Shown: piece after piece, positions 15,335 to 58,558 of the stretch
Position numbering within the stretch: position 1 is the first letter of the stretch
Layout: every line of letters starts with the position of its first letter
NCBI GenBank assembly: GCA_024655825.1
Contig: JANLFJ010000008.1
Span: 8,185 to 72,184, forward strand
Direction: 5' to 3'
Source: Peptococcaceae bacterium
GTDB lineage: Bacteria; Bacillota; Peptococcia; DRI-13; PHAD01
Length of the DNA stretch: 64,000 nucleotides
Position numbers and translations under genes: made by a program
Notes under the pieces: generated by a model
Database searches by the model: none
Told to the model about the DNA's origin: nothing
What the model saw: the letters and a program-made list of their open reading frames with translations, nothing else

Positions 15335-15664
15335 ATGAAATTGTGTTATAAAATATGGCTTGACCAAAACGGGAAGGCTTTTGGCGCCGGGCCGTATGAA
15401 ATATTTATGAAGATCGACCAGCACGGGTCTTTGCGCAAAGCGGCGGAAGAGCTCCACCTGTCTTACAGCAAGGCCTGGAGAATCGTCAACATGGTTGAGG
15501 AGAGGCTGGGGTTCAGATTTGTCGAGCGCGAGGCGGGCGGCAGCTGCGGGGGAGGGTCCCGGCTGACCGAAGAAGGCAGGAGATTTGTGCAAAGGTACGC
15601 CCTGTTTATGAGCGAGGCTGAAGAGTGCTTGAAGAGAGCATTTGAAAAACACTTTGCAGGTTGA
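15335..15664 (+). CDS. ModE N-terminal-domain-like winged-helix regulator (no Mop domains)
   Basis: GSLRKAAEELHLSYSKAWRIVNMVEERLG and GGSRLTEEG resemble the ModE/LysR-type HTH found in Mo-responsive regulators. Confidence 0.7.
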   Translation: MKLCYKIWLDQNGKAFGAGPYEIFMKIDQHGSLRKAAEELHLSYSKAWRIVNMVEERLGFRFVEREAGGSCGGGSRLTEEGRRFVQRYALFMSEAEECLKRAFEKHFAG

Positions 15665-15731
15665 CAGTCGTTTTCAACTGTTATATTTTTATGCTGAGAG
15701 GTTTGCCCGCGGCAAGATTTTTTGTTTGGCC

Positions 15732-15759
15732 ATCGTTATGTACGCGCGAGAATAACGAC
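15732..15759 (+). promoter_or_regulatory. Mo-box/ModE-box-like palindrome upstream of the DUF364-ABC operon
   Basis: ATCGTTATGTA-CGCGCG-AGAATAACGAC, i.e. CGTTAT...ATAACG arms. Lies 23 nt before the DUF364 start. Confidence 0.45.
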
Positions 15760-15782
15760 TGACAGGAGGAGAAGGGAAAGCG

Positions 15783-16520
15783 ATGGAGAGCACAGGCTTA
15801 TACCAGAGGCTGAAAACTTACCTGCAAGAAATCATATATTCTCACCACCTTGGGGATGAAGAAGTCCTCATCAGGGGAAAAGAGCTTTCAGCCGAGGAGG
15901 CGATTGGCAAACCCGGTCGCCAGGATTATCCCTTGATTAAAGGAAAGGAAAAAATGCTGCAGGCCGAATTCAGGGGAGCAACAGGGCAGGCCTTTACCGA
16001 CAGCCCCGGCCCGTTTGCCGGGGCGCTGCCGGATTTTTTGAACATGCCCCTGGACACAAACTTTCAGCGGGCGGTCTTCACCGCGGCTTTGAATGCGGTG
16101 ATGAGGCACCTGGGGATGATTGAAGGCACCGTGCACTGTAAGGACGAAGAACCGGCCAGGTGCGCCGGGCAACTGGTGGATCTTCTTCGCCGCGAGTACG
16201 GGAACCCGAGGGTTGCCCTGGCCGGCTTTCAGCCGGCTCTCCTGGAACACTGCAGCAAGGCCTTCCCCGTAAGGCTGGTCGACCTGGACAAAGACAACAT
16301 CGGGCAGAAAAAATGCGGGATAATTGTCGAGGATGCCGAACTGAAAACAAAAGAACTGGTTGAGTGGTGCGACCTGCTTCTTGTAACGGGGAGCACAATA
16401 GCCAACGGCACGATAAGCGCCTTTTTACAGGTTGATAAGCCGGTCATCTTCTACGGCACGACTATTGCGGGCGCAGCGAAAATACTTGGCTTGAGGAGGT
16501 TCTGCCCATGCGCAAAATAA
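15783..16520 (+). CDS. DUF4213/DUF364 (putative heavy-metal chelation, Rossmann-like) protein
   Basis: 245 aa. The overall pattern (C-terminal LLVTGSTIANGT...) recalls the DUF364 family. Its stop overlaps the start of the ABC substrate-binding gene. Confidence 0.65.
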   Translation: MESTGLYQRLKTYLQEIIYSHHLGDEEVLIRGKELSAEEAIGKPGRQDYPLIKGKEKMLQAEFRGATGQAFTDSPGPFAGALPDFLNMPLDTNFQRAVFTAALNAVMRHLGMIEGTVHCKDEEPARCAGQLVDLLRREYGNPRVALAGFQPALLEHCSKAFPVRLVDLDKDNIGQKKCGIIVEDAELKTKELVEWCDLLLVTGSTIANGTISAFLQVDKPVIFYGTTIAGAAKILGLRRFCPCAK

Positions 16521-17551
16521 AAGTGGATGCGGGCAAGGCGATAAATAAAAGCCTCCTTGCCGGCCTGCTGGTTATGCTGTCTCTTTTTTTCCTTGTTTCC
16601 GGGTGCGGCAAGGACAAAAAGACGCAGGCGCCAGGGCTGGCGGTGGAGTATAATACCCACGCGGCATGCGCTTTCATTGCCCAGGAAAAAGGCTGGCTTC
16701 CCCGGCCGGAGCGGGGCAGGGGCTTGTTCAGCGTGTATGCCACAGGCGTGGCCCTCTCAGGGGCTTTGGCCCGGGGTGATGTGGATGCCGCCTTCATCTG
16801 CTTGATACCGGCTGTTACCGCTTATACCAACGGCGGCGTGCCGGTTAAAATAGTATGCGGGACCCACCAGTACGGCTACGGCCTGGTCTGCAACGCGTCC
16901 AGGATTAAAGAGGTCAGGGACCTGGAAGAAAGCGGGATAAAAATCGGCTGCGTCAGTGAGGGAGGGACCACCGACATCCTCCTGCACAAAATCATCGAAA
17001 AGCACGCCCTGGTAAAAGAAAAAGTCATGCGCAACGTTTTGCGGATGGACCCGCCCAGGCAGCTGCTGGCCCTGAAAGCGGGGGAAATTGACGCGGCCGT
17101 GGTTCCGGAACACTTCGCGACCCTGGCCGAAGAACTCGGATTCAAAATGCTGCTGAAAAGCCAGGACGTTTGGCCCGAAATGCCAGGCAGCGTCCTGCTG
17201 GCAACGGACAGGCTGGTGACTGAAAACCGGGCCGCGGTAAAGGAACTATACGCGGCCGTAACCCGAGCCACCGCTTACATCAACGAGAACCCCGCCGGTG
17301 CGGCGGAAATTGTGGCCCAAAAGCTCAATGACCTTCAAGGGCCGGCGGGATTGAGTAAAACGGCGGGCGCTGGCGGCGATTTCTATACCACCGCGGAGAC
17401 CATGCGCCGTTCAATGGACCGCCTGACATACACCACCCGGCTGGAAAAAGAAAAAGTACAGGAAGTCATCGATTTCATGCATAAATTAGGATACATAAAA
17501 GAAGCGTTTCCGGCGGAGAAGATCATGCTCGAGGAAGGTTGGGCAGGTTAA
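16508..17551 (+). CDS. ABC transporter substrate-binding lipoprotein, NMT1/SsuA/TauA-like
   Basis: Lipobox LVSGC. Periplasmic-binding fold resembling the nitrate/sulfonate/taurine family. Confidence 0.8.
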   Translation: MRKIKVDAGKAINKSLLAGLLVMLSLFFLVSGCGKDKKTQAPGLAVEYNTHAACAFIAQEKGWLPRPERGRGLFSVYATGVALSGALARGDVDAAFICLIPAVTAYTNGGVPVKIVCGTHQYGYGLVCNASRIKEVRDLEESGIKIGCVSEGGTTDILLHKIIEKHALVKEKVMRNVLRMDPPRQLLALKAGEIDAAVVPEHFATLAEELGFKMLLKSQDVWPEMPGSVLLATDRLVTENRAAVKELYAAVTRATAYINENPAGAAEIVAQKLNDLQGPAGLSKTAGAGGDFYTTAETMRRSMDRLTYTTRLEKEKVQEVIDFMHKLGYIKEAFPAEKIMLEEGWAG

Positions 17552-18315
17552 TGACTGTCAACAAAAAAAGTCTTCCGTTATCCAGAGTTGTTTACATCGT
17601 GCCGGCAGGCCTGCTGATCTTAGCCTGGGAGGCGCTGGCGTCCTGGAAGGGCAGCCCTTTGTTTCCGCCTTTTTCCGCGGTTGCCCGGCAGTTTTACACG
17701 CTCCTTGTAACCCAGGGGTCCCTGTGGACGCATATTACAGCCAGCCTGTTCAGGGTGACGGCCGGATTTGTGCTGGGGAGCGCGGCAGGTTTGCTGGCGG
17801 GCGTGCTCATAGGATGGAACAGGCTGGCCGCCGGTTCCCTGGGGCCCCTGGTCAGCATTTTTTATCCCATACCGGCCCTGGGATGGCTTCCCCTGCTCAT
17901 GCTCTGGGTTGGTCTCAATGAAGCCCTGCCCGTCCTGATCGTCTTTATATGCTGTTTTTTCCCGGTGCTCTACAATACGGCATCGGGCATCAGGAACGTG
18001 GATGCCAGGCATATCAGGGCGGCGAGGACGCTGGGAGCCTCTGAACTGCAAATACTCCGCAGCGTGGTGCTGCCTTTGGCCCTTCCCAGCATTTTTACCG
18101 GTCTCAAACTCGAAGCGGGCATGGCCTGGCGCGTAATCATCGCGGCAGAGATGGTAGCCGTTCCCACGGGGATTGGCGTTTTAATGATGAAAGCGGAAAG
18201 CCTGATCCGCGTGGATACCATCATGGTCTGCCTGGCGGTTTTATCCCTGATGTGTTTTTCTTTTGAAAAAATGATCCGGTATTTTGAAAAGAGGTTTACC
18301 TGTTACTGGAGGTAA
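17551..18315 (+). CDS. ABC transporter permease (SsuC/TauC-type, BPD_transp_1)
   Basis: Six hydrophobic helices and an EAA-like loop (RAARTLGASELQILRSVVLP). The ATG overlaps the upstream TAA. Confidence 0.85.
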   Translation: MTVNKKSLPLSRVVYIVPAGLLILAWEALASWKGSPLFPPFSAVARQFYTLLVTQGSLWTHITASLFRVTAGFVLGSAAGLLAGVLIGWNRLAAGSLGPLVSIFYPIPALGWLPLLMLWVGLNEALPVLIVFICCFFPVLYNTASGIRNVDARHIRAARTLGASELQILRSVVLPLALPSIFTGLKLEAGMAWRVIIAAEMVAVPTGIGVLMMKAESLIRVDTIMVCLAVLSLMCFSFEKMIRYFEKRFTCYWR

Positions 18316-18319
18316 GGCC

Positions 18320-19003
18320 GTGACTTTTATCGAGCTCAAGGAAATAACCAATTCATACTGCCTTGACAGGGTTAATTTAAAAATACCGGACGGGGAATTG
18401 CTGGTGCTGATGGGACCGACGGGTTCCGGAAAAACCACCCTGTTAAATGTTATCGCCGGGCTGGAAGACTACCGGGGAACGGTCCTGTTTGACGGCCTGC
18501 CGGTGGATGGAACTGCGCCCGGCCGGAGAAATATCGGGTACCTTTTTCAGGATAACAACCTCTTTCCGCACATGGATGTGTATTCCAATATAGCCTTCGG
18601 TTTGAAGGTGCGGGGGACGGGCAGCGTGGAGATCGCGGAAAAAGTTGAAGAATTAATGGGCATGTTTAATCTTGCTGGCCTGCGTTCCCGTTTTCCCGGC
18701 AGCTTAAGCGGGGGTGAGAGGCAGCGGGTTGCCCTGGCCAGGGCTTTGGCCATTGCCCCGGATGTTTTGCTGCTTGATGAGCCAACCAACAGTTTGGATT
18801 ACCGCACTTCCAAGCGCCTGAGGGCTGAATTCAGGATGTGGCAAAAAAGGCTGGGTATAACTACCGTCTACGTTACCCATGATTACTGCGAGGCGGTGGA
18901 AATGGCAGACAGGATGGCTGTTATGGAGCGTGGTAAAATCGTGCGAACCGGCCGGCCTGAAGAGTTTCGCTTTTTTTCTGAGGAAATGGAGGGTATGCCG
19001 TGA
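18320..19003 (+). CDS. ABC transporter ATP-binding protein
   Basis: Walker A GPTGSGKTT, signature LSGGERQR, Walker B LLLDEP. GTG start after GGAGG. Confidence 0.9.
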   Translation: MTFIELKEITNSYCLDRVNLKIPDGELLVLMGPTGSGKTTLLNVIAGLEDYRGTVLFDGLPVDGTAPGRRNIGYLFQDNNLFPHMDVYSNIAFGLKVRGTGSVEIAEKVEELMGMFNLAGLRSRFPGSLSGGERQRVALARALAIAPDVLLLDEPTNSLDYRTSKRLRAEFRMWQKRLGITTVYVTHDYCEAVEMADRMAVMERGKIVRTGRPEEFRFFSEEMEGMP

Positions 19004-19758
19004 ACCTGACTGAAGCCCTTGGGCTGGAAGAAAACAGCTTCCTGACGTGCGTGGGGGCCGGCGGGAAAACTTCTCTGTTAATGACCCTGGGAACCGAGTG
19101 GCAAAAAGAGGGGAGACCTTTTCTCCTTACGGCGACCACCAAAATGTTTTGCTGGCAGGTGCTCGACTTTTACCCGGTTTTTTGCCGGGACTATGAACGG
19201 GGCAGCCGGCAGGTCCGCAAGTTCATGTCAAAACACGGCTGCGCCGCCTGGTTTAGGGCCTGGCGGGAAACAAAGGTGGATGGGCTGCCCCCGGAGTGGA
19301 TCGATGAGCTTATTCGCACGGGCTTTGCGGCTAATGTGCTGGTGGAAGGGGACGGGGCCAGGAAAAAGCTGCTGAAGGTCCCGGCGCCTCACGAGCCGGT
19401 GATCCCGTCCGCATCAAACCTGGTGGCCGGCGTTTTAAGCCTTAAAGCCGTCGGGGAAGAATTCTCTTCACGCTTTGTCCACAGGCTGGAGATTGCGGCG
19501 GAACTGCTGGGGAAAAAGCCTGGAGAGAGGATAGAAGCCGCTGACCTGGCGACACTGGCGGCACACCCACAGGGGATTTTTAAAGGGGCCGGCCAGAAAA
19601 AAGTGCTTGTGCTGGCAGGCAGGGACGGCGAAAACGGCAGCCAGGCCGAAATAATAGCCGAACAATTGAACAGCAGCCCGGCACATATAGCGGCGTGCGT
19701 CGTTACGGAAGGTTACGGGAAACTGATGAAGCCCGTGGAGGTATACTCTTATGAGTAA
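19000..19758 (+). CDS. yqeC: YqeC-family selenium-dependent hydroxylase accessory protein
   Basis: P-loop-like CVGAGGKTSLL near the N-terminus. Size and context fit the YqeC family. The start overlaps the upstream stop. Confidence 0.65.
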   Translation: MNLTEALGLEENSFLTCVGAGGKTSLLMTLGTEWQKEGRPFLLTATTKMFCWQVLDFYPVFCRDYERGSRQVRKFMSKHGCAAWFRAWRETKVDGLPPEWIDELIRTGFAANVLVEGDGARKKLLKVPAPHEPVIPSASNLVAGVLSLKAVGEEFSSRFVHRLEIAAELLGKKPGERIEAADLATLAAHPQGIFKGAGQKKVLVLAGRDGENGSQAEIIAEQLNSSPAHIAACVVTEGYGKLMKPVEVYSYE

Positions 19759-20359
19759 CGGCCTGGGCGTTGTAGTGCTGGCTGCCGGGAAAGCCGCGCG
19801 CATGGGTGGACCCAAGCTTCTCCTGGAACTGGGAGACGACACGCTGCTCGGCCATGTCCTGAAAACCGCCGCCTGTTTTGACTGGAGCGGGCGGGTTGTC
19901 GTTACTGGCGAGCCGCGCGGGCCGCTGGAAGAAGTGTGCAAAAAATACGGTTTCCCTTTTGTCCATAATCCCGACCCCGGGGCGGGCCAGAGCAGCTCGC
20001 TGCGCCTCGGCCTCTCCCGCCTGCCCGCCGGCCTGGACGGCGTCCTTTTTCTCCTGGGAGACCAGCCCCTGGTGGGTGTCGACCTGGTGGAGGCGATGAT
20101 CAGGGAGTTCGGCAGGTCCGGGAAAGAAGAAGGGATCGTTGTTCCCTTTCACGGCGGGGAGGCCCGCAGTCCCGTCCTGTTCGCTTCGCGCTGGCGGGAG
20201 GCCTTGTCCCGGCTGGAAGGGGACCGGGGCGGCCGCCAGCTGATTAAAGAGAATCCCCGGGCGGTGATTTCTTTGCCTTGGAATGATTCCCGCCCTTTTT
20301 TGGATATCGACCGGTGGGAAGACTATGAAAAAGTCCTGAGGGAGTGGTTGAAAACATGA
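19751..20359 (+). CDS. mocA: MobA/MocA-like molybdenum cofactor nucleotidyltransferase
   Basis: VVLAAGKAARMGGPKLL and the GDQP motif, as in the NTP_transf_3 family. Confidence 0.75.
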   Translation: MSNGLGVVVLAAGKAARMGGPKLLLELGDDTLLGHVLKTAACFDWSGRVVVTGEPRGPLEEVCKKYGFPFVHNPDPGAGQSSSLRLGLSRLPAGLDGVLFLLGDQPLVGVDLVEAMIREFGRSGKEEGIVVPFHGGEARSPVLFASRWREALSRLEGDRGGRQLIKENPRAVISLPWNDSRPFLDIDRWEDYEKVLREWLKT

Positions 20360-21177
20360 TTATTTACGAGAAAATCCTGGAACTGCTTTCAGGAGGCGAA
20401 ACGTTCGCCCTGGCCCAGGTCGTCACCCGGGAAGGCTCGGCTCCCCGGGGAGCGGGGGCGAAAATGCTGATAAAAAAAGACGGTTCCATATTTGGCACGG
20501 TAGGAGGGGGGGACCTGGAGGCGATGGTGGTCAACGAGGCCCTGGACAGCCTGGACAAGCAAGAGAACAAGTTCAGGGAATACAACCTTGATCAAACCGC
20601 AAGCGGCAATCTGAACATGCAGTGCGGCGGCCGGGTAGGCGTTTTTATCGAGGTCGTTTCCCCGCCTCCCCACCTGGTGATTGCCGGGGCCGGGCACGTG
20701 GGGATGGCCCTGGCCAGGATGGCCTCGGAACTGCAGTGGCGGATCGAAATAGCGGACGACAGGGCGGAGCTGCTTGAACCGGCCTTGCTCCCGCCCGGGG
20801 CGAAAGGAGTTTGGGGGAAAACGTACGTGGAGGCCGTCCGGAAAACGGCAATCTCCGGCAGCAGCCTGGTGGTCATTGTGACCCGCAATGCGGATGCGGA
20901 AGTCCTGGAAGAGGTGATCCGGCGGCCGGCCCGCTACCTGGGCATGATCGGGAGCAGGCGCAAGATCGGGTTAATCAGGAAAAAGTTGGAGGAAAAAGGT
21001 GTGTCGGAGGAACTGCTTAACCGCGTGCACGCCCCGATTGGTCTTGACATCGGGGCGGAAACGCCGGCCGAAGTGGCTGTCAGCATCCTGGCGGAACTGG
21101 TGGCGGTGGTAAGAGGCGGCAATCCGGAAAAAGCGGGAAGCCTCAGCAAGAAGGATGGCAGCCCTGGCGGCGATTGA
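20356..21177 (+). CDS. xdhC: XdhC/CoxI-family molybdenum hydroxylase maturation factor
   Basis: XdhC_CoxI N-domain (ALAQVVTREGSAPRGAGAKM) plus the Rossmann C-domain (VIAGAGHVG). ATGA overlap with mocA. Confidence 0.8.
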   Translation: MIIYEKILELLSGGETFALAQVVTREGSAPRGAGAKMLIKKDGSIFGTVGGGDLEAMVVNEALDSLDKQENKFREYNLDQTASGNLNMQCGGRVGVFIEVVSPPPHLVIAGAGHVGMALARMASELQWRIEIADDRAELLEPALLPPGAKGVWGKTYVEAVRKTAISGSSLVVIVTRNADAEVLEEVIRRPARYLGMIGSRRKIGLIRKKLEEKGVSEELLNRVHAPIGLDIGAETPAEVAVSILAELVAVVRGGNPEKAGSLSKKDGSPGGD

Positions 21178-21199
21178 ATGAAAACAGGAAGGCAAGGGG

Positions 21200-22015
21200 A
21201 TGACTTTAATGAAAAGCAGCGGGCTCGTGGTGGTGAGGGGCGGCGGGGACATCGCCACGGGGATAATCCACCGCCTTTACCGGTCCGGTTTTAAGGTCGC
21301 TGCGTTGGAGACGGCGCAACCGACCGTCATCAGGCGGACTGTGGCCGTTGCGCAGTGCGTATTCTGCGGGGAGACAGAGGTTGAAGGGCTGAAGGCCAGG
21401 CTGGCCGCTTCACCGGAGGAGGCTCTCGAGATGGCGGGAAAGGGGCTGGTCCCGGTGCTGGTCGACCCGGAGGCCAGGTTCCTGGAAGCACTGCGGCCGG
21501 CGGTGGTGGTGGACGCGATTTTAGCCAAAAAGAATATGGGGACGTCTCTTGATATGGCCCCAATCGTTGTCGGGGTGGGGCCGGGATTTACGGCGCGCCG
21601 GGACGTGCACGCCGTTGTTGAAACGCAGAGGGGCCATTACCTGGGGAAAGTCTATTACGAGGGGAGCGCCATTCCTGACACGGGGATACCCGGTAAGATT
21701 GAAGGCGTGGATAAAGAAAGGGTTGTGCGTTCTCCCGCCGATGGCCTGTTTTTCCCGGCGAGGGAAATCGGCGAGCGGGTGAAACGCGGTGAAACGCTGG
21801 GCAGCGTGAACGGGGTGGAAGTCAAGTCACCGCTTGAGGGAATCCTGCGGGGCCTCATCAACAAGGGGGTTGAGGTTAAAAAAGGCATGAAAATAGGAGA
21901 TGTCGACCCGCGCCAGGTACGGGAACACTGTTTTTCCATCTCCGACAAGGCCAGGGCGGTGGGCGGCGGGGTGTTGGAAGCGATATTACATTTCAGCAGG
22001 GAGGACGCAAAGTGA
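21200..22015 (+). CDS. yqeB: YqeB/EF2563-family selenium-dependent molybdenum hydroxylase system protein
   Basis: VVVRGGGDIATGIIHRLYRSGF... recalls the YqeB family. Context is yqeC/xdhC/mocA. Confidence 0.6.
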   Translation: MTLMKSSGLVVVRGGGDIATGIIHRLYRSGFKVAALETAQPTVIRRTVAVAQCVFCGETEVEGLKARLAASPEEALEMAGKGLVPVLVDPEARFLEALRPAVVVDAILAKKNMGTSLDMAPIVVGVGPGFTARRDVHAVVETQRGHYLGKVYYEGSAIPDTGIPGKIEGVDKERVVRSPADGLFFPAREIGERVKRGETLGSVNGVEVKSPLEGILRGLINKGVEVKKGMKIGDVDPRQVREHCFSISDKARAVGGGVLEAILHFSREDAK

Positions 22016-23040
22016 ACGGAATGCGCAAGGTCAGGATTGAAGAAGCGGTGGGGATGGTCCTGGCCCATGACGTTACCAGGATAGTGCCGGGGGAATTCAA
22101 GGGCCCGGCTTTCAGAAAAGGGCATGTCATCCGGGCTGAAGACATCGGCGCTTTTTTGGACCTGGGCAAGGAGCATGTCTATGCCTGGGAGGCCAGGCCA
22201 GGGTGGCTCCATGAGGACGAGGCGGCCGCGGCCATCGCCAGGGCGGTTGCCGGGGAAGGGCTGCGCTTTACGGAACCAAAGGAAGGGAAAATAACCTTTT
22301 TGGCCGGCTGTGCGGGATTAATAAAGGTTGACGTGGAGAGGCTGGAACTCATCAACACAATCGACCAGGTTGTCCTGTCCACCCTGCACAACAACAGGCC
22401 GGCAAAGGAGGGCGAAAAAGTTGCCGCAACCCGCGTGGTCCCGCTGGTGATCGAAGAAGGAAGGGTCAGGGAAGTCGAGAGAATTGCCAAAAGCGGGCCA
22501 ATCATTTTCCTCAAGCCCCTGAAGCCCGCCAGGGTCGGGATCGTGACCACGGGGAACGAGGTATACAAGGGGAGGATCAAAGACGGCTTCGGGCCGGCCT
22601 TGCAGAAAAAAATGCTCCATTACGGCTGCGAAATAACCGGCCAGGAAATCGTTCCGGACGAGCCGGCCTTGATTAAACAGGCAATCATGGGGATGAGAAA
22701 CAGAGGGGCCGAAATAATCCTGGTAACAGGCGGGATGTCGGTTGACCCCGACGACGTCACGCCCTTGAGCATCAGGGAACTGGGAGCGGAACTGGTCACT
22801 TACGGCTCGCCGGTTTTGCCCGGAGCCATGTTTCTCCTGTCTTACTGGAACGGGATACCGGTCCTGGGTCTGCCGGGATGCGTCATGTACGCCAGCCAGA
22901 CCGTCTTTGACCTGGTCTTCCCCCGCCTCCTGGCCGGAGAGAAGCTCAGCAAGCGCGACATCGCCCGCCTGGGACACGGCGGCCTTTGCCTGGACTGCGA
23001 GGATTGCCGCTATCCCGCCTGCAGTTTTGGCAAGGCTTAA
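22012..23040 (+). CDS. MoeA/MoCF-biosynthesis-domain molybdopterin-binding protein with a C-terminal Cys cluster
   Basis: MoCF_biosynth-like core (ILVTGGMSVDPDD) and the C-terminal CLDCEDCRYPAC. The start overlaps the yqeB stop. Confidence 0.6.
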   Translation: MNGMRKVRIEEAVGMVLAHDVTRIVPGEFKGPAFRKGHVIRAEDIGAFLDLGKEHVYAWEARPGWLHEDEAAAAIARAVAGEGLRFTEPKEGKITFLAGCAGLIKVDVERLELINTIDQVVLSTLHNNRPAKEGEKVAATRVVPLVIEEGRVREVERIAKSGPIIFLKPLKPARVGIVTTGNEVYKGRIKDGFGPALQKKMLHYGCEITGQEIVPDEPALIKQAIMGMRNRGAEIILVTGGMSVDPDDVTPLSIRELGAELVTYGSPVLPGAMFLLSYWNGIPVLGLPGCVMYASQTVFDLVFPRLLAGEKLSKRDIARLGHGGLCLDCEDCRYPACSFGKA

Positions 23041-23180
23041 AATGGGCAATCAAAAAACGAGAGCCCGCCGGCCGGAAAAAATTTTTCCGGTTTCCCGGCA
23101 AGGCCGCAGGATGTGACGGAAACACACCGAACATTATTAATAAAAGCGGGGGGCAGCCCCTTAAACGGTGGTACCAGGTC

Positions 23181-25010
23181 ATGGCTGAACTAAGAGAATA
23201 TAACGAAATGTCGCAAAAAATAGCAGAGGCGATCGAGGCCGTGCTCAAACTTGATGTAACAATCATGGATCAAGAAATGCGGCGCATTGCCGGCACGAAG
23301 TTCTACAGCAGCCGCCTGCACGAAAAGATAGAAAAGAACACCATTTTTGATTACTGTTTTAAAAACGGGAAACCTTATGTCATCGAGCAGCCCCGCGCCA
23401 ATGAGATTTGTTTTGCCTGCCCGCGACTGGCGACTTGCGCTGAAAAGGCCGAAATCTGCGTGCCGATAAAGTATAAAAGCGCGGTCATCGGCGTAATTGC
23501 TATCGTCGCTTCCACGGAAGAACAAAGAACAAAGGTGGTAGCGAACAAGGAAACATACCTGGAGTTTTTGCAAAAAATGGCATCGTTTCTGGAAGCAAAG
23601 TATGCCGAAATTCAAATCACGAAAGAGAATACACTGCTGAACCAGCGCCTTTCCAATATCGTCAATACCCTTGATGAAGGGCTTGTGGTTTTCAAAAAAA
23701 ACGGGGAAGTTCTATACCATAACGAAGCCATGAAGGACCTGGCCCGGGAGGCGGGCGCCGCTGACGGCGGGATTTTCTTAAAAGACCTCTGGCAGTGCCT
23801 CAACAGCAAAAAAATGTTGAAGCCGGAAACGGAAATTGGGCCTAATGAAATAATCCTGGAGTACAATAATGAACGTATTGTCCTGCTGGCCAACGTCATT
23901 TTAAGCGGGGACGAATACTTGCCGGAAATAATTGTTACCTTGCAGAACCTGAGAAAAATTCAAAAGAGAGTTATTCAGTCGGCGGAGAAAAACCAGGTCA
24001 AGGTTCAGTTTTCCGACATTATAGGCATCTCGCCGAAACTGGCTGAAGTAAAGCAAATTGCCGCCAAAGCCGCCGCTTCCGATTCCGATGTCTTGATTTG
24101 CGGCGAGAGCGGCACGGGCAAAGAATTATTCGCCAGGGCCATTCACAACCAGAGCTCGAGGAGAGACTATCCTTTTGTACCTATTAACTGTGGGGCCATA
24201 CCCGATGAACTGCTGGAAAGCGAGCTGTTCGGCTACGAAAAAGGGGCTTTTACCGGCGCTTATACCACGAAATACGGAAAATTTGAGGTGGCCGATAACG
24301 GGACAGTCTTTCTTGATGAAATAAGCGAAATGCCCTTTGGCCTGCAGGTTAAACTCCTGCGCGTCCTGCAGGAAAGGGAAGTGTGCCGGGTGGGAAGCAA
24401 CAGCATCAGGAAAGTAAACCTGAGGATAATTGCCGCCACCAACACCGATTTGCTTGAACGCATCAGCAAGGGCTTGTTCCGCGAGGATCTCTATTACCGG
24501 TTGAACATCATCCCGCTTAATATACCGCCTTTAAGGGAAAGGAAAGAAGATATTCTTTATATTGCCGAGCATTTACTTGGGAATTTTAATAAAAAACTGA
24601 ATAAAAACATAACCGGCATATCCCGGGAGGCCATGAAAATATTTCTTGAATATCCCTGGCCGGGAAACGTGCGAGAACTGCAAAACGTTCTCGAGTATGC
24701 CGTCAACTTTGAAACAGGCACAATCATAAGCAGGGAATGCGTTGAAAACAGGATATACTGCTCCCTGGAGAGAGACGAGGTTTCCCCGCCTTCGGCCAGG
24801 GAACGGGGAATAACGCTGGAGGCTTATTTGGAGAAAGCGGAAAAGAAATTCTGGCAAAACATCATGGCGCATTACCGGCACGACAGGAGGGGTATTGAAA
24901 GAATCTGCCGCGACCTCAAAATCAGCAGGGCTACTTTTTACAGGAAGATAAAAAGGCTTAAAATCAGTCTCAAAGATGAGAATGTCTCAGAAATGAGACA
25001 ATATAAATAA
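23181..25010 (+). CDS. Sigma-54-dependent transcriptional activator (GAF-like/PAS sensory region, AAA+, Fis HTH)
   Basis: Walker A GESGTGKE, sigma-54 contact loop ESELFGYEKGAFTGA, Walker B VFLDEI, and a C-terminal HTH ISRATFYRK. Start set at MAELREY. Confidence 0.9.
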   Translation: MAELREYNEMSQKIAEAIEAVLKLDVTIMDQEMRRIAGTKFYSSRLHEKIEKNTIFDYCFKNGKPYVIEQPRANEICFACPRLATCAEKAEICVPIKYKSAVIGVIAIVASTEEQRTKVVANKETYLEFLQKMASFLEAKYAEIQITKENTLLNQRLSNIVNTLDEGLVVFKKNGEVLYHNEAMKDLAREAGAADGGIFLKDLWQCLNSKKMLKPETEIGPNEIILEYNNERIVLLANVILSGDEYLPEIIVTLQNLRKIQKRVIQSAEKNQVKVQFSDIIGISPKLAEVKQIAAKAAASDSDVLICGESGTGKELFARAIHNQSSRRDYPFVPINCGAIPDELLESELFGYEKGAFTGAYTTKYGKFEVADNGTVFLDEISEMPFGLQVKLLRVLQEREVCRVGSNSIRKVNLRIIAATNTDLLERISKGLFREDLYYRLNIIPLNIPPLRERKEDILYIAEHLLGNFNKKLNKNITGISREAMKIFLEYPWPGNVRELQNVLEYAVNFETGTIISRECVENRIYCSLERDEVSPPSARERGITLEAYLEKAEKKFWQNIMAHYRHDRRGIERICRDLKISRATFYRKIKRLKISLKDENVSEMRQYK

Positions 25011-42018: not shown

Positions 42019-42233
42019 TTAGTTTAATTATAACCCGGAGCACTGCTGTTTAAGCAATAGTCAGGAAAGGTTAAATTAGCTTCCGGTTTGTCGTTTTCAA
42101 GAAATATGGCGGTATAGGTTTTATTATCTCCCGTTTTCCTTCTTTTTTTCCTGACAGCAAAAGAGGGGACGGTCCTTGCTCGTCTTTAAAGGGCAAGCCA
42201 GCACCGTCCCCTCTTGCTAATCTTTTCTTGCTT

Positions 42234-43484
42234 TCAGCTCACGTGTTTTTTACGCGAGAGAGCATGAAGCTTTTTGTAGCCTTCCAGCTTGACGTAGTCG
42301 GGCACGCCTTTCTTCATCGGCACGGAAACCTCGCCTTCGATCAAGGGCTGGGCATAGCGGATGAATTCGTAAGTCACGTAATTCCGGTCTTCGTTAATCA
42401 TGCTTAGCGGCATCGTCTTTTCGACGTTGGCCACCAGGTCCAGATCAACGAAGCCGGTTTTGCTGATATACTGGGGGTAATCGTTTCTTTCCAGGGTAAC
42501 CATAACGCCTGACAGCCCACGCACAGCCAGCTTGACCGCCTCCCGCCCGACCATGTATGCTTCGGAAGCGTCGACCCTGGCCGCATGGTGCATGGCGCTG
42601 CGCTGTGAGGAACCCAGGATGTTGCACCTTACCTTCACCTTGATTTCGCTGGTAATCATGTCCTTCAGGGTGTTGGCCAGGCCGTTGCCGAGCTTGACAT
42701 GACCAAAGGCGTCGGTTGTTTTTTCCGCCGCGAGGTAGCTGCCGTCCTCGGTCTTGAGTCCTTCGGAGGCGACAACGTAGCAGTAGCCCAATTTGTTGTA
42801 GACCTTGATCACGTCGGAAATGAACCTTTCCTTATTAAAAGCCACTTCGGGAAGATAAATCAGGTGCGGGGCGTCCTCATCGTGGTGTTTGGCCAGAGCG
42901 GCTGCCGCCGTGAGCCAGCCGGCGTTTCTTCCCATGACCTCGAGTATGGCGATGTCGCTTGAGGCGATTATACCCTGGAGGTCAAGGCCTGTCTCCTTTA
43001 CGACCGTGGCGATGTATTTTGCGGCGCTCCCGTACCCGGGGCTGTGGTCGGTATGGGGAAGATCGTTGTCCACTGTTTTGGGGACACCGATCACCCTCAT
43101 TTCATAGCCCGTTTCCAGGGCAAGCCTGTTTATCTTGCTGGCGGTGTCCATGGAGTCATTGCCGCCGACATAGAAAAAATAACGAATATTATGTTTTTTA
43201 AAAATGTTGAGCAGGGTATCGTAATCCTCTTCTTTTATTTTATAGCGGCAGGAGCCGAGAGCGGCGCCGGGAGTGTAACGCAGGCCTTCTATCGTCTGGC
43301 GGCTTTCCAGGCCGAGGTCAATCAGCTGCTCGTCCAGGACGCCTTTTATGCCGAACAGGGCGCCGTAAATTGTTTTGATCTGCGAATAGCGCATTGCTTC
43401 TTTGATCAGACCGCTGATGCTGTTGTTGATGACTGCAGTCGGCCCGCCGGACTGGGCTATCAGGCAGTTGCCTTTTAGGGTCAC
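42234..43484 (-). CDS. Phosphofructokinase, probably PPi-dependent type
   Basis: SGGPTAVIN, GGNDS and VPKTVDND. Asp and Lys occupy the positions that are Gly104 and Gly124 in ATP-dependent E. coli PfkA. Confidence 0.8.
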   Translation of the reverse strand: MTLKGNCLIAQSGGPTAVINNSISGLIKEAMRYSQIKTIYGALFGIKGVLDEQLIDLGLESRQTIEGLRYTPGAALGSCRYKIKEEDYDTLLNIFKKHNIRYFFYVGGNDSMDTASKINRLALETGYEMRVIGVPKTVDNDLPHTDHSPGYGSAAKYIATVVKETGLDLQGIIASSDIAILEVMGRNAGWLTAAAALAKHHDEDAPHLIYLPEVAFNKERFISDVIKVYNKLGYCYVVASEGLKTEDGSYLAAEKTTDAFGHVKLGNGLANTLKDMITSEIKVKVRCNILGSSQRSAMHHAARVDASEAYMVGREAVKLAVRGLSGVMVTLERNDYPQYISKTGFVDLDLVANVEKTMPLSMINEDRNYVTYEFIRYAQPLIEGEVSVPMKKGVPDYVKLEGYKKLHALSRKKHVS

Positions 43485-43656
43485 GCAGAATCAACTCCTT
43501 TGAAAAATGAGCTGCTAATGTCACTTTACAATTATAACAGCGCTTTCATTGCAATTACATAGGAGGGTACTGGCTCCCTTTCCAGCAACTGGCGTTTATG
43601 TTTATCCAACAGCATAAAAAGTTGAAAGAAGGCGGCCGGATAAAAACGGGTTGCTC

Positions 43657-44127
43657 TTAGCCGGGGTTTTCAAGCGCCTTAAATTTGCGGCATTCTTTGC
43701 AGTAGCCGTATACCTCGACCCGGTGTTCTACCGGCCAAAAGCCGCACTGGCTGTTTTTCAACATCTCTTCCATTTGCTTGACCGGGCAGTAAGGAAGGGG
43801 TTCGGTTTTATGGCAGAGGAGGCAGATCATGTGGTGGCGGTGGGTGTTTTCGGCAAGCAGTTTGTAGCGGGCGGCCCCTTCCAGGGTGATTTTTTCGATT
43901 ATCCCGTGTGAAACCAGGGATTCCAGGTTCCGGTAAACGGTAGAAAAACTTACGCCCGGTTCAGTTTTTCTGATCTGGTCAAAAATTTCCAGAGGCTTGT
44001 AGAGTCTGTTTTTTTCTTTTAAAAAGACTGTCAGCATCAACCTGCGGGCGGGAGTGCTTTTTAAACCTTTCATTTTTAGGGTATTCCCGGGATCGGCCTG
44101 TTTTGTTTTCATCATAACCACCATCAA
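43657..44127 (-). CDS. zur: Fur-family metalloregulator, probably Zur
   Basis: Winged helix plus HHHMIC and CxxC motifs. It is the last gene of the znu operon. Confidence 0.75.
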   Translation of the reverse strand: MMVVMMKTKQADPGNTLKMKGLKSTPARRLMLTVFLKEKNRLYKPLEIFDQIRKTEPGVSFSTVYRNLESLVSHGIIEKITLEGAARYKLLAENTHRHHMICLLCHKTEPLPYCPVKQMEEMLKNSQCGFWPVEHRVEVYGYCKECRKFKALENPG

Positions 44128-44175
44128 TTCAAAATCATATATAATTTTAACAAAAAAAGATAGACGGTTGAAAGC

Positions 44176-44979
44176 TCAAACTTTGGAAAACAAAAGGAGG
44201 ATGAGAAAATTCAAAACTGATGACATTACTATTGTCCCGCCGGGAGCCAGGTCGAGGTAATAGGAAGCGACAAGGCCTGCGGCGACGGCCAGGATTCCAA
44301 AAAAGACAGCCCAAAGGAGCGTGGCCAAAAAACCTTTGTGCAGCAGCAGGCTGGTCGCCGCGGGAATAACCATAAGGGAGGCGACGAGAAGGGCGCCGAC
44401 GAGCCGCAGGCCAAGGGCGACTATAACGGCGGCCAGGACAACGAGCAGGTGATTGAAAAAGCGGGTGTTGATTCCTGCCAGGCCGGCCCCTTCTTCATCG
44501 AAGGTGACAAAAAACAGCTCGCGGTAATAATAGGCAACCACACCGCAGGATAATGCGGCCAGGGACATGATCAGAAACAGGTCCTGCCGGGTCAGGGTGA
44601 TGATGCTGCCAAAGAGGAGGCTGGTAATACCGGCGTCGGAAGCCCTGGTGATCCCCAGCAAGATTGCGGAAGCGCCCAGGCCGGCGGCCATGATGACTGC
44701 CAGGGACAGTTCGCCGTAATAGTGGAAAAAGCCGCGCAATTTCTCCAGGAAAAGGGAAAGGAGAACGGAAAGGAGAAGAGCAGTGGGCAGGGGGCTTATC
44801 CCCCAGAGGATTCCCAGGAGTACACCGGCCAGGGAAACATGGGCCAGCGTATCTCCAACCAGGGAAAGGCGGCGCAGGACAAGGAAAAGCCCGATAGTGG
44901 GGCAAAGGGCGCCGACCATCAAACCCGCCAGGACGGCTCTGCGCATAAACTCATAATGCAAAATTTCCAAGTATACCAC
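44176..44979 (-). CDS. znuB: Zinc/manganese ABC transporter permease
   Basis: ABC-3 family hydrophobic protein. Overlaps the ATPase gene. Confidence 0.85.
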   Translation of the reverse strand: MVYLEILHYEFMRRAVLAGLMVGALCPTIGLFLVLRRLSLVGDTLAHVSLAGVLLGILWGISPLPTALLLSVLLSLFLEKLRGFFHYYGELSLAVIMAAGLGASAILLGITRASDAGITSLLFGSIITLTRQDLFLIMSLAALSCGVVAYYYRELFFVTFDEEGAGLAGINTRFFNHLLVVLAAVIVALGLRLVGALLVASLMVIPAATSLLLHKGFLATLLWAVFFGILAVAAGLVASYYLDLAPGGTIVMSSVLNFLILLLFSKV

Positions 44980-45637
44980 CGCTTTCGGGTTTTACTGCCG
45001 TTTCGATCGCCCGGCCTTTTTCTATGCGGATGACGCGCGAGGCACGCCCTAAAAAAGGGGCCGGGTCGTGGGTGACCATGACCACGGTCAGGCTTTCTTC
45101 GTGCAAAGCGAACAGCAGGCTGGTGAAATCCGCCTGTGCCTGGGCATCAAGACCTGTATACGGTTCGTCGAGTAAAAGCATATCAGGGCCTACGACCAGG
45201 GCGCGCGCAATGTTGACCCGCTGCAGCTGTCCCCCGGACAGGGAGCCGAGGAGGCACTTTCTTTTTTCCCGCAGGCCGACTTTTTCCAGGACTTTATTGA
45301 TTGCCTCCCTGCGCCCCGGAAAAACAAAAGGAAGATGCGCGGCGATAACCTCTTCTACGGTAGCCGGGAAACCCTGGTTATATGTAGAAGAGATTTGCGG
45401 GACATAACCAATTCTATTTTTTCCCCGCCCGGGCGGCGTGTTTACCCGGACAAGTCCGGCCTGGGGATTCAGCAAACCCAGCATAATTTTGAGGAGGGTG
45501 GTTTTGCCCGAACCGTTTGGCCCCGTCAAGACAAGGAATTCGCCGCGGCGGACGGTCAGGCTCAGGTTTGCCAGGACCGGCGCTCCTTTCGGGTATGAAA
45601 AAGTAATGTCCCTGATCAAAACGGCATCTTCATTCAT
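44951..45637 (-). CDS. znuC: Zinc/manganese ABC transporter ATP-binding protein
   Basis: GPNGSGKTT, LSGGQLQR and LLLDEP. Confidence 0.85.
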   Translation of the reverse strand: MNEDAVLIRDITFSYPKGAPVLANLSLTVRRGEFLVLTGPNGSGKTTLLKIMLGLLNPQAGLVRVNTPPGRGKNRIGYVPQISSTYNQGFPATVEEVIAAHLPFVFPGRREAINKVLEKVGLREKRKCLLGSLSGGQLQRVNIARALVVGPDMLLLDEPYTGLDAQAQADFTSLLFALHEESLTVVMVTHDPAPFLGRASRVIRIEKGRAIETAVKPESGGILGNFAL

Positions 45638-46536
45638 GGCGCGTACTCCAGGGCTGTTTTTAGGTTTTCCAAATTTTTTCTCATTATGCTGAAATAGTCT
45701 TCCCCTGACCGGATCTCTTTTTCCGTTAAACTCCCCAGGGGGTGGAGGACAAGGGTGCGCGCGTTTATTTCCCGGGCAATTGTTTCGGAGACTTTAGGGC
45801 TGGCGAGAGATTCAAAAAAAATGCAGGATATGCCGTTTGTTTTAGCCAGTTCGATAAGCTCGCGGAGCTTGCCGGGAGTGGGCTCCGCCTCGGCGCTCAG
45901 GCCCATAACCGGTATTTGGACCAGACCGAAGTCCCTGGCCAGGTAGGCGAAGGCGGCATGAGAGACTATGATTTGGTTTTTTTTGCATTTTGACAGGGCT
46001 TCCCGGTATTCCTGCTCCAGTGTTTGCAGTTCCTTTCTGAAAACCTCGTAATTTGCTTCATACGCCTTTTTGTTAGCGGGGTCAACCAGGATAAGTGCTT
46101 CAAGGATCGTTTTTCCTTGGTTCTCAGCGTTGATGGGTGAAAGCCAGGTATGGGGGTCGTTTTCTAGTAAATCAAGGCCTTGGCTGGCGTTGACCATTAA
46201 AGGGGCGTTTCCCTGTACGGCCTGTTTCAGCTTCTCCAGGTAAGGTTCCATGCCGGCCCCGTTGTATATGAAAATCCTGGAACGGGCAAGCTCCGCCACG
46301 AGCCTGGCGGATGGCTGAAACGAATGGGGCTCCGCGCCGGGAGGGGTTATGTTTATTACGTTTATTCCCGGCCCGCCAATCCTTTTGGTAAAATCATAAA
46401 GCGGGTAAATGCTCGTGTAAACTTTCAACTGCTGCCCGGCTGGCTGGGCTTCGCCGGGGACTAGATCCTGTCTGCAGCCTGCGGCCAGGACAACAGCCAG
46501 GGTAAGGCATAAGTAAAAAACGCGGGCTCTTTTCAT
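45634..46536 (-). CDS. znuA: Metal (Zn/Mn) ABC substrate-binding lipoprotein, TroA/ZnuA family
   Basis: Lipobox LAAGC. Cluster-9 SBP pattern (EPHSF, DPHTWLSP). Confidence 0.85.
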   Translation of the reverse strand: MKRARVFYLCLTLAVVLAAGCRQDLVPGEAQPAGQQLKVYTSIYPLYDFTKRIGGPGINVINITPPGAEPHSFQPSARLVAELARSRIFIYNGAGMEPYLEKLKQAVQGNAPLMVNASQGLDLLENDPHTWLSPINAENQGKTILEALILVDPANKKAYEANYEVFRKELQTLEQEYREALSKCKKNQIIVSHAAFAYLARDFGLVQIPVMGLSAEAEPTPGKLRELIELAKTNGISCIFFESLASPKVSETIAREINARTLVLHPLGSLTEKEIRSGEDYFSIMRKNLENLKTALEYAP

Positions 46537-46554
46537 CGGCCGGGCACCTCTTTA

Positions 46555-53586: not shown

Positions 53587-53762
53587 AATGTACCTCCTCG
53601 CATTGCTGTAGAAATATATTTAAAACACCGGCTGTTTAATGCCAGCATATTTTTTCAAAAAATGTTTTCTCCTAAGACCCGCAGATTTCATACTTTTCAT
53701 TATGTATTATCATTTTAAAGAAGGCCCGGGACTTGCCCGGGCCCTTTACCGCTAGTTCCAGA

Positions 53763-54800: not shown

Positions 54801-55077
54801 CCTCCCCGAAAATGATGGATTTTCAAAAAGTCGCCTACAGTTTACGCTTTACTACTTTTCGTTTATCCTGGCACCCCACCTCCTTGAAGGTCAAGATAAT
54901 TATGAATCATTCAATTTATTAAAAACGCCCCGAGTATAGCTTAAACAGAGCCTAACCAGGAGCGTCGCTGCCCGAAAATCGGTTCGGGTCAGTGCTTGCT
55001 GCGGCTATAAAGGGTTTTTTCAATCGCTGCCCGGGCAAATGGGCGAGGGAGCTCCGCATGGCCTTATGCAATTCAAA

Positions 55078-55809: not shown

Positions 55810-55874
55810 TATCGAAAACCTCCAGGCGCGAAAAGGAATATGGATGTTTTGCCTTGCTGATTTGCATTAATGAT

Positions 55875-57059: not shown

Positions 57060-57365
57060 GCTGATACCTCCGGGCTTTCCTTTCGCCTGCTCATCATATA
57101 GTGAGGAGCTGTTATGAATAGCATACCATAAATTTTGAAAAGAAAACAAGGTATTTTTAAAAAAATTTCATGGTAAATTTAATTTTAACAATGTAAATAA
57201 TTGTCAACTCAGCACTTTTGAATAATTTAATATAAGCAATTTGCAAAAAAATTTATAATTAATAAAGATGTTTATTGACCCCGCGGCTGGAAAAAAGATA
57301 TAATGGACTAAAAGAGCTGCTCACCCCATGATGAGCAGTAATGGTGGGGAAGGAGGAAATGCCTG

Positions 57366-57635
57366 ATGCAGGAAGGACCCAAAAATTACATTTGCCGCTG
57401 CGAAGAAGTAACGAGGGAAGAAATTGAAGAGGCCATCAAAAACGGCGCCACGACAATGAATGAAGTTAAACGCTGGTCCAGGGCGGGCATGGGATTATGC
57501 CAGGGAAAAATCTGTTCCCGGAACGTGTCCCGTATTGTCAGCGAAGCGACCGGCAAAAAGCCGGAGGAGGTGCTGCCGTCCACTGTTCGCCAGCCGGTTC
57601 GCCCGGTAAGGATAGATGTAATCACTAAGGAATAA
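57366..57635 (+). CDS. BFD-like [2Fe-2S]-binding small protein
   Basis: CRCEEVT...GLCQGKIC four-Cys pattern of the Fer2_BFD family. Confidence 0.75.
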   Translation: MQEGPKNYICRCEEVTREEIEEAIKNGATTMNEVKRWSRAGMGLCQGKICSRNVSRIVSEATGKKPEEVLPSTVRQPVRPVRIDVITKE

Positions 57636-57669
57636 GGAAAGATGACAATCTATTGTGGAGGTGTTGGGA

Positions 57670-58557: not shown

Positions 58558-58558
58558 G

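Follow-up and report, generated by a model that had tools for sequence, protein, structure and literature searches.

A 64,000-nucleotide stretch of a contig from a Peptococcaceae bacterium (JANLFJ010000008.1), referred to here as the window, contains a cluster in which genes for an ABC importer and a divergent DUF364-fold protein are followed, on the same strand and almost without spacing, by genes for selenium-dependent maturation of the molybdenum cofactor (Moco). On the evidence of comparative genomics, this cluster is probably a Moco maturation operon into which a noncanonical molybdenum or tungsten (Mo/W) importer, controlled by a ModE box, and its cytoplasmic DUF364 partner have been built, the client hydroxylase and selD being encoded elsewhere in the genome. 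An earlier note on the same DNA had proposed that the importer and the DUF364 protein feed a Mo-, W-, or selenium-related substrate into cofactor maturation. It named two outcomes that would speak against this proposal, namely, YqeB and YqeC assignments that fall below their hidden Markov model thresholds, and a substrate-binding protein (SBP) that groups with characterized hydroxymethylpyrimidine (HMP), thiamine, or sulfonate binders and lacks any association with Mo or Se genes. Both were tested and neither was obtained, so that the proposal is supported, with Mo or W favored as the cargo and a likelier route available for selenium.

Gene content of the operon

The open reading frame (ORF) list of the window agrees with the JGI gene calls for the corresponding 95-kb metagenome contig (3300038743, Ga0417229_000161) in placing ten codirectional genes on the + strand between positions 15335 and 23040 (Table 1). 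The nine genes located 3′ of the regulator (15783 to 23040) are tightly packed, every junction being an overlap or a gap of at most 22 nt, as described in the earlier note, whose count of eight genes is corrected by its own list of nine. The DUF364 and SBP genes overlap by 13 nt, the SBP and permease genes by 1 nt, the ATPase and YqeC genes by 4 nt, the YqeC and MocA-like genes by 8 nt, and the MocA-like and XdhC genes by 4 nt. Short gaps separate the permease from the ATPase gene (4 nt), the XdhC from the YqeB gene (22 nt), and the YqeB gene from that of the molybdopterin (MPT)-binding protein (5 nt).

Table 1. Positions of the operon genes, the operator, and the adjoining activator gene in the window
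Feature	Position	Strand	Basis
Helix-turn-helix (HTH) regulator resembling the ModE N-terminal domain only, 109 aa	15335..15664	+	HTH_1, TIGR00637, PDB matches
E. coli-type Mo-box operator, CGTTAT-N12-ATAACG	15734..15757	.	Pattern match
Divergent DUF364-fold cytoplasmic protein (DUF364v)	15783..16520	+	PF04016, AlphaFold2 fold
Lipoprotein SBP, NMT1_2/SsuA-like subfamily; candidate Mo/W binder	16508..17551	+	NMT1_2
ABC permease, TauC/SsuC/NrtB type, not ModB type	17551..18315	+	NCBIfam scores
ABC ATPase, WtpC/CysA/PotA/ModC clade, without C-terminal TOBE	18320..19003	+	NCBIfam scores
YqeC, selenium cofactor biosynthesis marker	19000..19758	+	TIGR03172, PF19842
MocA/YgfJ-like MobA-family nucleotidyltransferase, probable Moco cytidylyltransferase	19751..20359	+	NTP_transf_3
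XdhC-family Moco chaperone/maturation factor	20356..21177	+	XdhC_CoxI, XdhC_C
YqeB, selenium-dependent molybdenum cofactor biosynthesis marker	21200..22015	+	TIGR03309
MPT-binding-domain protein, not true MoeA	22021..23040	+	PF00994 only
GAF, sigma-54 AAA+, HTH activator	23004..25010	+	Sigma54_activat, GAF_2, AAA_lid_14

Among the maturation proteins, YqeB scored 372.3 bits on TIGR03309 (cutoff, 220), and YqeC scored 155.3 bits on TIGR03172 (cutoff, 73.05) and 130.4 bits on PF19842 (cutoff, 27.6), so that both assignments clear their curated NCBIfam thresholds. For the genes named mocA and xdhC in the earlier note, the Pfam domains were confirmed but the equivalog cutoffs were missed. The product of the former reached 132.9 bits on NTP_transf_3 (cutoff, 27) and 154.5 bits on TIGR03310 (equivalog cutoff, 186.45) and, judged by these scores, is best called MocA-like. 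The XdhC protein carries an XdhC_CoxI domain (79.1 bits) and the Rossmann domain XdhC_C (131 bits), both above the Pfam cutoffs, and stays below the equivalog cutoffs of NF045664 (257 bits versus 350) and TIGR02964 (142 bits versus 161.6).

The last gene of the operon had been termed MoeA-like, a name of which only the MoCF_biosynth domain stands. This domain (PF00994, residues 173 to 303) is the single Pfam domain of the protein, its PDB profile matches (gephyrin, MoeA, and MogA) are confined to the same region, and neither MoeA_N nor MoeA_C was matched in Pfam; we therefore do not regard the protein as a MoeA. Its N-terminal half (about 170 residues) had no Pfam or PDB match, and its C terminus bears an invariant CxxCxxCx4C motif (C323, C326, C329, and C334 in homologue alignment A3) that may form an Fe-S or metal site. 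The family, for which no equivalog model exists, keeps company with YqeB and XdhC.

Neither a Mo hydroxylase subunit nor SelD was found among the Pfam-labeled called genes at contig positions 244 to 73993 (about 74 kb). This extends the statement of the earlier note, which had covered about 15 kb on either side, to at least about 23 kb upstream and about 42 kb downstream of the cluster. Since hydroxylase subunits adjoin the maturation and importer genes in Atribacterota relatives, their absence in cis is a peculiarity of this genome.

Operator and conserved linkage in related loci

The regulator encoded at the start of the cluster ends after its HTH domain (HTH_1, 48.7 bits). Its top NCBIfam match was TIGR00637 (ModE_repress; 66.9 bits, under the cutoff of 98.5), and its best PDB matches were E. 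coli ModE (1O7L/1B9M), followed by the short ModE-like protein 2IJL. The two C-terminal Mop/TOBE molybdate-binding domains of ModE were not found, and by its sequence the regulator appears to be a ModE N-terminal domain without Mop domains, in agreement with its initial description as a Mop-less ModE-type HTH protein. The palindrome CGTTATGTACGCGCGAGAATAACG lies between the regulator and DUF364 genes and ends 25 nt upstream of the DUF364 start codon. Its half-sites and spacing agree with the E. coli ModE consensus ATCGNTATATA-N6-TATATANCGAT (PMC545781), and the arrangement sought as the mark of a ModE regulon, CGNTATATA-N6-TATATANCG upstream of target genes, was found at this position (15734 to 15757). 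In the 64-kb window the pattern CGTTAT-N12-ATAACG occurs at this single site, against 0.05 expected. A terminator-like hairpin (15702 to 15716) is located 3′ of the regulator gene, and no Moco riboswitch came up when the complete window was scanned with Rfam at gathering thresholds. In E. coli, ModE also controls Moco biosynthesis genes.

To see how the importer is placed in other genomes, a scan centered on the SBP was run over 185,579 species genomes, which gave 237 loci with relatives. The best 80 of these were analyzed and derive from metagenome-assembled genomes (MAGs) of Dehalococcoidia/Chloroflexota, Atribacterota, deltaproteobacterial/Desulfobacteraceae-type, Bacillota, and Elusimicrobiota bacteria. 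With up to one mismatch, 26 Mo-box sites were found in 24 of the 80 loci, compared to about 2.1 after local shuffling of the same 1.02 Mb, and 22 of the 26 are located 35 to 118 nt upstream of HTH, SBP, XdhC, or MPT-binding genes. The Mo-box-like palindrome that had first been noticed is thus an E. coli-type box, unique in the window and recurrent among its relatives. Many Dehalococcoidia loci consist only of a ModE-like HTH gene, a Mo-box, and the SBP, permease, and ATPase genes, an architecture identical to that of modE-modABC.

Neighboring genes were counted by tblastn with the window proteins. The permease was present in 69 of the 80 loci, the ATPase in 68, the DUF364 variant in 44, the ModE-like HTH in 40, the MPT-binding protein in 32, XdhC in 29, YqeB in 23, MocA in 22, and YqeC in 18. 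At least one Mo-related gene (ModE-like HTH, DUF364, MPT-binding, XdhC, YqeB, YqeC, or MocA) was found within 10 kb of the SBP gene in 67 of the 80 loci, many of which are on short contigs, and in 24 of the 28 loci having at least 5 kb on both sides; 201 of the 208 matches to these genes are on the same strand as the SBP. The co-occurrence check proposed in the earlier note thus ties the SBP subfamily to Mo/Se cofactor genes in several lineages.

The order of these genes varies. In Atribacterota it is [hydroxylase subunits], YqeC, MocA, YqeB, XdhC, [YedE, cysteine desulfurase], HTH, MPT-binding protein, DUF364v, [canonical DUF364], SBP, permease, and ATPase; in Dehalococcoidia it is MocA, HTH, SBP, permease, ATPase, DUF364v, canonical DUF364, YqeB, YqeC, and XdhC; and in the deltaproteobacterial/Desulfobacteraceae-type loci it is YqeB, YqeC, XdhC, SBP, permease, ATPase, MocA, MPT-binding protein, and DUF364v. 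Such shuffling among Bacillota, Atribacterota, Dehalococcoidia, and deltaproteobacterial/Desulfobacteraceae lineages argues for selection on the association and not for inheritance of one arrangement. When all ORFs in these loci were clustered de novo, the same Mo/Se genes again dominated the recurrent neighbors; the large, small, and FAD subunits of Mo hydroxylases (12 loci), a YedE-like protein, a class-V aminotransferase, and purine-catabolism-like genes came to light as well. The SBP and permease score best on the SsuA and TauC models, as would be expected if an ordinary sulfonate or taurine importer had come to lie beside Moco genes by chance. This explanation is effectively refuted by scores that fall far under the family cutoffs, by a linkage that recurs in most loci and in several lineages despite the shuffled order, by the shared Mo-box, and by the absence of ssuD, tauD, and other sulfonate-utilization genes from the recurrent neighbors.

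The neighbors in Atribacterota bring two other cargoes into consideration. There, the transporter stands between hydroxylase/maturation genes and genes for a carbamate kinase, a carbamoyltransferase, and an amidohydrolase, a set that resembles purine catabolism, and SBPs of the NMT1 family are known to bind pyrimidine-like ligands (PMC10443332). The importer might accordingly take up the substrate of the hydroxylase (a purine, nicotinate, or another N-heterocycle) and merely be coregulated with maturation. We consider this improbable, as no hydroxylase or catabolic gene is near in the window or in most Dehalococcoidia loci, the importer is invariably accompanied by Mo-handling genes and a ModE operator, and systems of the ModA/ModB type replace it in equivalent operons.

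No more probable is an importer of a selenium species serving the YqeB/YqeC step, in which the two invariant SBP cysteines described below, which lie at predicted cleft positions, would bind Se, even though the importer is co-operonic with YqeB/YqeC in the window and in 24 of the 80 loci. Most transporter loci lack YqeB and YqeC yet retain ModE-like regulators and Mo-boxes, and DUF364v pairs with ModABC even where Yqe genes are not nearby. In addition, four Atribacterota loci (L011, L027, L043, and L074) encode, between XdhC and the ModE-like HTH, a YedE-like membrane protein and a class-V aminotransferase that is a cysteine desulfurase/selenocysteine-lyase homologue. YedE is a selenium transporter candidate (PMC5322559), so that the ABC importer shares one Atribacterota locus with what is likely the route for selenium, and selenium is a less likely cargo of the importer because better candidates share these loci.

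Other neighbors bear on Mo/W homeostasis. In four loci of deltaproteobacterial/Desulfobacteraceae/Syntrophales type (L075, L078, L079, and L082), a ModA/ModB-type system is located immediately upstream of the NMT1-type system, an arrangement that puts two putative Mo/W importers in tandem and suggests that the NMT1-type system belongs to Mo/W homeostasis as well. PBP_like-HTH regulators (PF12727), which we take to resemble TunR-type tungstate regulators, are encoded nearby in L016, L059, L079, and L082.

Importer components, DUF364 variant, and candidate cargo

The SBP has a signal peptide closing with the lipobox VSGC and passed the NMT1_2 model (88.9 bits; cutoff, 24.7), which assigns it at the superfamily level only. 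It remained below the cutoff of SsuA_fam (116.8 bits versus 163.5) and matched no ModA (TIGR01256/SBP_bac_11), TupA, or WtpA model in Pfam or NCBIfam, in agreement with the earlier view of an NMT1/SsuA/TauA-like protein. Its best PDB sequence match was TauA (E = 4e-9), and the structural neighbors of its AlphaFold2 model (predicted local distance difference test [pLDDT] score, 86) are 3UN6, TauA, ThiY, Thi5, SsuA, the CmpC/NrtC regulatory domains, and PqqT, all at 15 to 20% identity; it therefore does not group with the characterized HMP, thiamine, or sulfonate binders. Since this fold family binds small anions as well as heterocyclic cofactors, the fold alone does not decide the ligand. The SBP family itself is compact. 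Searched with its profile, 1.84 billion cluster representatives gave only 66 matches at E ≤ 1e-30, about 30 of which are full length and above 250 bits, followed by a long weak tail. Residues E47, H51, Y77, T79, C98, H120, Y122, Y124, C148, G152, E201, Q219, and W222 are invariant.

The permease scored 150.6 bits on TauC (cutoff, 342), 141.9 on SaoP, and 125.4 on SsuC, all under the cutoffs, and only 31 bits on ModB (TIGR02141; cutoff, 182.6) and 24 bits on WtpB (cutoff, 340). The best NCBIfam matches of the ATPase were PhnT2 (243 bits), WtpC (233 bits; cutoff, 440), and the sulfate ATPase (232 bits), with TauB at 150 bits. With its SBP and permease under the family cutoffs and an ATPase that is not of the TauB type, the importer does not qualify as a NitT/TauT (SsuA/TauA) system. 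The window ATPase has 227 residues, compared to about 350 for most orthologues, which carry a C-terminal TOBE-like domain (those of L005, L006, L019, L031, and L051 were compared). TOBE (PF03459) reached 32.2 bits in a Dehalococcoidia example (cutoff, 22.3) and was subthreshold in an Atribacterota example. In the lineage of the window, where the YqeC start lies 4 nt before the ATPase stop, this regulatory domain was apparently lost.

The strongest argument on the cargo, itself drawn from gene sequences and positions, comes from relatives of the DUF364 variant. Homologues with 50 to 62% identity to DUF364v were found in Crassaminicella thermophila, Dehalobacter sp. DCM, a Syntrophomonadaceae MAG (62%), and Clostridiaceae 35-E11, which are cultured or well-assembled Bacillota, and in each of them the gene is located immediately 3′ of those for an SBP_bac_11-type SBP, a permease, and an ATPase. 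The C. thermophila operon comprises XdhC, YqeB (364 bits), the MPT-binding protein, ModA, a permease, a WtpC-like ATPase, DUF364v, YqeC, and a MobA-like NTP transferase. Its ModA passed TIGR01256 (99 bits; cutoff, 62.5) and its permease the Mo_ABC_porter model (231 bits; cutoff, 210). The ATPases of the two operons are 41% identical, and the permeases share similarity only in the EAA loop by BLASTP. In the window, an NMT1-like SBP and a TauC-like permease thus occupy the slots of ModA and ModB, which points to nonorthologous displacement. The C. thermophila ModC-like ATPase likewise has no TOBE domain.

DUF364v passed PF04016 with a partial match (33.5 bits, cutoff 23; profile positions 3 to 95 of 147), and DUF4213 gave no Pfam match in the window protein. 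In its AlphaFold2 model (pLDDT, 90.8), DUF364v has the two-domain, enolase-N-like and Rossmann-like fold of the family, and the six best PDB matches by Foldseek were chains of the DUF364 crystal structures 3NPG and 3L5O (about 240 columns; template modeling scores, 0.47 to 0.56). By single sequence it had no PDB match, and a 10-sequence profile gave a marginal match to 3NPG (E = 0.42). His118, Cys119, Cys127, and Cys241 are invariant, and in relatives the gene is always found beside an ABC importer, of either the ModA or the NMT1 type. In 18 loci (cluster c9; L006, L013, L019, L021, L026, L031, L038, L042, L061, L069, L071, and others), a canonical DUF4213+DUF364 paralogue, absent from the window, is encoded directly 3′ of the cysteine-rich DUF364v, suggesting a two-protein pair. 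The link between DUF364 and molybdate transporters is already in print: DUF364 was reported beside molybdate/tungstate transporters (PMC2954201), and in the modABC-DUF364 operon of Methanococcus maripaludis (MMP_RS02675), the DUF364 gene is cofit with nifH (bioRxiv 10.1101/2024.03.05.583561). The sole biochemically characterized DUF364 enzyme acts on methyl-S-adenosylmethionine (PMC12930334), and the fold thus binds nucleotide-like ligands.

The Mo-box and the conserved association with Moco genes speak for Mo/W import, and several observations weigh on the other side. Apart from this case, members of the SBP and permease families are known to handle sulfonates, taurine, nitrate, bicarbonate, thiamine precursors, and pyrroloquinoline quinone (PQQ), and a survey of SBP structures lists thiamine and aminopyrimidine as NMT1 ligands, places oxoanions in other families, and contains no NMT1-type oxoanion-metal binder (PMC10443332). 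The regulator lacks Mop domains, so that its Mo responsiveness is assumed from the operator, and the window ATPase lacks TOBE. The ModA/ModB-type system found beside the NMT1-type system in some loci suggests that their specificities are not identical. Finally, the invariant cysteine, histidine, and glutamate residues that are candidates for the SBP pocket are atypical compared to the ModA site, which uses hydrogen bonds only, and could suit another ligand; two cysteines and two histidines among them, uncommon in an oxyanion site, are not found in TauA by profile alignment. According to the AlphaFold2 secondary structure, the invariant residues lie at the C-terminal ends of central strands and at helix N termini in both lobes. 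Type II binding proteins usually bind their ligands at such places, and from these secondary-structure positions the invariant residues would be expected in the cleft.

While a Mo/W importer remains our preferred reading, the invariant cysteines and histidines leave room for more exotic substrates. It is conceivable, at a low probability, that the SBP captures thiomolybdate, thiotungstate, or another sulfide-modified Mo/W species through coordination by Cys98, Cys148, His51, His120, and Glu, in which case the cysteine-rich DUF364 protein would take over the thio-metal in the cytoplasm. Judging from the names of MAGs and samples, many carriers may live in anoxic subsurface or sediment, where sulfide-modified Mo/W species might form.

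Less probable still is the salvage of a pterin, a molybdopterin precursor, or a Moco fragment, to be processed by the DUF364 and MPT-binding proteins. The MPT-binding gene is adjacent in 32 of the 80 loci, and the control of Moco biosynthesis genes by ModE in E. coli would fit such a function. Structural neighbors of the SBP bind thiamine (4NMY), formylaminopyrimidine (3IX1), and PQQ (PqqT, 9B1U), and flavin- or pterin-like ligands were predicted in the DUF364 structure paper (PMC2954201). On the other hand, a true ModA and a ModB-type permease occupy the same slot in relatives, minimal HTH/Mo-box/ABC-importer operons exist that have no pterin genes, and an ATPase of the WtpC/CysA type that bears TOBE typically belongs to an oxyanion importer. 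Taken together, the retention of ModE-type operators, the TOBE domain on orthologous ATPases, and the presence of ModA/ModB in the same slot of relatives narrow the choice of substrate toward Mo or W.

If the importer does carry Mo or W, the Mop-less ModE-type repressor would bind the Mo-box over the operon promoter or leader. Upon derepression, the SBP lipoprotein would capture the metal outside the cell, most likely as molybdate, tungstate, or a closely related Mo/W species, and the TauC-like permease, presumably a dimer, would import it with energy from the ModC/WtpC-like ATPase. The DUF364 protein may then receive or process the metal in the cytoplasm, and the MPT-binding protein, MocA (cytidylylation), XdhC (chaperone), and YqeB/YqeC (selenium step) would complete the cofactor for a hydroxylase whose genes lie elsewhere in the genome.

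Relation to known systems and implications

The closest known systems are the modABC-DUF364 operons of C. thermophila and other organisms. They are like the window in their DUF364v (50 to 62% identity), flanking maturation genes of the selenium-dependent molybdenum hydroxylase (SDMH) trait, and ATPase clade, and Mo acquisition is presumed for all of them, including the operon of M. maripaludis. The window differs by its NMT1_2/SsuA-like SBP and TauC/SsuC-like permease, which replace ModA (SBP_bac_11) and ModB. With the SDMH accessory cluster (yqeB-yqeC-ygfJ of E. coli and its equivalents in Enterococcus faecalis and Clostridioides difficile; PMC2276186), it has YqeB, YqeC, a MocA/YgfJ-like protein, and an XdhC-family protein in common, whereas the hydroxylase, selD, and catabolic genes are not in cis. 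The YqeB/YqeC trait is known (PMC2276186, PMC5322559, PMC11448449, and bioRxiv 10.1101/2025.04.24.650524), and the parts of these four sources covered by the search do not mention an ABC importer, DUF364, or the MPT-binding protein as members of the accessory set.

The SBP fold and the permease family are also those of the NitT/TauT importers (TauABC, SsuABC, and ThiXYZ) and of NrtABCD/CmpABCD. The window proteins, however, have 15 to 20% identity to solved members and miss the family cutoffs, the ATPase is of the WtpC/CysA type (with TOBE in orthologues) and not of the TauB type, and the genomic context is one of Mo cofactor genes instead of sulfur, nitrogen, or thiamine genes. WtpABC, TupABC, and MolBC-A would share the proposed high-affinity Mo/W uptake, and WtpC is the second-best NCBIfam match of the ATPase, but the SBP has no detectable similarity to WtpA or TupA, and the permease is far from WtpB. 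The SAO system (SaoX/SaoP/SaoA; Haft and Gwadz) belongs to the same broad NitT/TauT family and has cysteine-bearing SBPs proposed to bind metal species (bioRxiv 10.1101/2022.07.06.499078). Membership in this organometallic system was rejected on scores of 54 bits versus 300 (SaoX), 142 versus 295 (SaoP), and 149 versus 360 (SaoA); selenocysteine codons and a MerB-like lyase are missing, and the neighbors are unrelated. Our literature search found no earlier description of an NMT1/TauT- or NitT/TauT-type Mo/W importer.

The sigma-54 activator gene that follows the operon overlaps the MPT-binding gene by 37 nt, and its product scored 237 bits on Sigma54_activat in addition to GAF_2 and AAA_lid_14 matches. 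As tblastn detected no homologue in any of the 80 related loci, we place it outside the conserved module; it is possibly a regulator of client catabolic genes. It recalls YgeV of the E. coli xdh/ygeW region (PMC2276186, table), and aminotransferase, cupin, and PP-loop ATPase genes lie 3′ of it. Elsewhere in the window, the sole Rfam match at gathering threshold is a lysine riboswitch (RF00168, 61646 to 61826, + strand, 103.8 bits) in an aspartate-semialdehyde dehydrogenase/aspartokinase-type region. Genes for ZnuA, an ABC ATPase, and an ABC-3 permease with an adjoining Fur-family regulator (about 42200 to 46540, − strand) are probably a Zur-controlled zinc uptake operon and unrelated. A TAXI-TRAP transporter (NMT1_3 and a fused DctM) with an FCD/GntR regulator (53700 to 61300, − strand) adjoins DAO-type oxidase, Fer2_4, pyridine-nucleotide oxidoreductase, and DHDPS-like genes, an ensemble that resembles opine/hydroxyproline catabolism and is unrelated to the Mo operon.

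What the window holds is probably a new SBP/permease family doing a known job in a known operon. If so, an SBP and a permease were recruited to this job from the sulfonate/nitrate/thiamine-precursor superfamily, and the accessory gene set of the SDMH trait, which matters in anaerobic purine and urate degradation, is extended. DUF364, whose role beside Mo transporters has been open since 2010, and the MPT-binding protein that travels with YqeB/YqeC would both gain a testable biochemical context, and one may ask how molybdate is sensed by Mop-less ModE-like proteins that have kept the classical Mo-box. Were the SBP instead to capture a thio-metal, this would be a new chemistry of Mo/W uptake, in an importer family distinct from ModABC, WtpABC, TupABC, and MolBC-A. 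Surveys of Mo/W use infer it from ModABC, WtpABC, and TupABC and, if the importer is what we propose, would have missed a further family in several anaerobic lineages.

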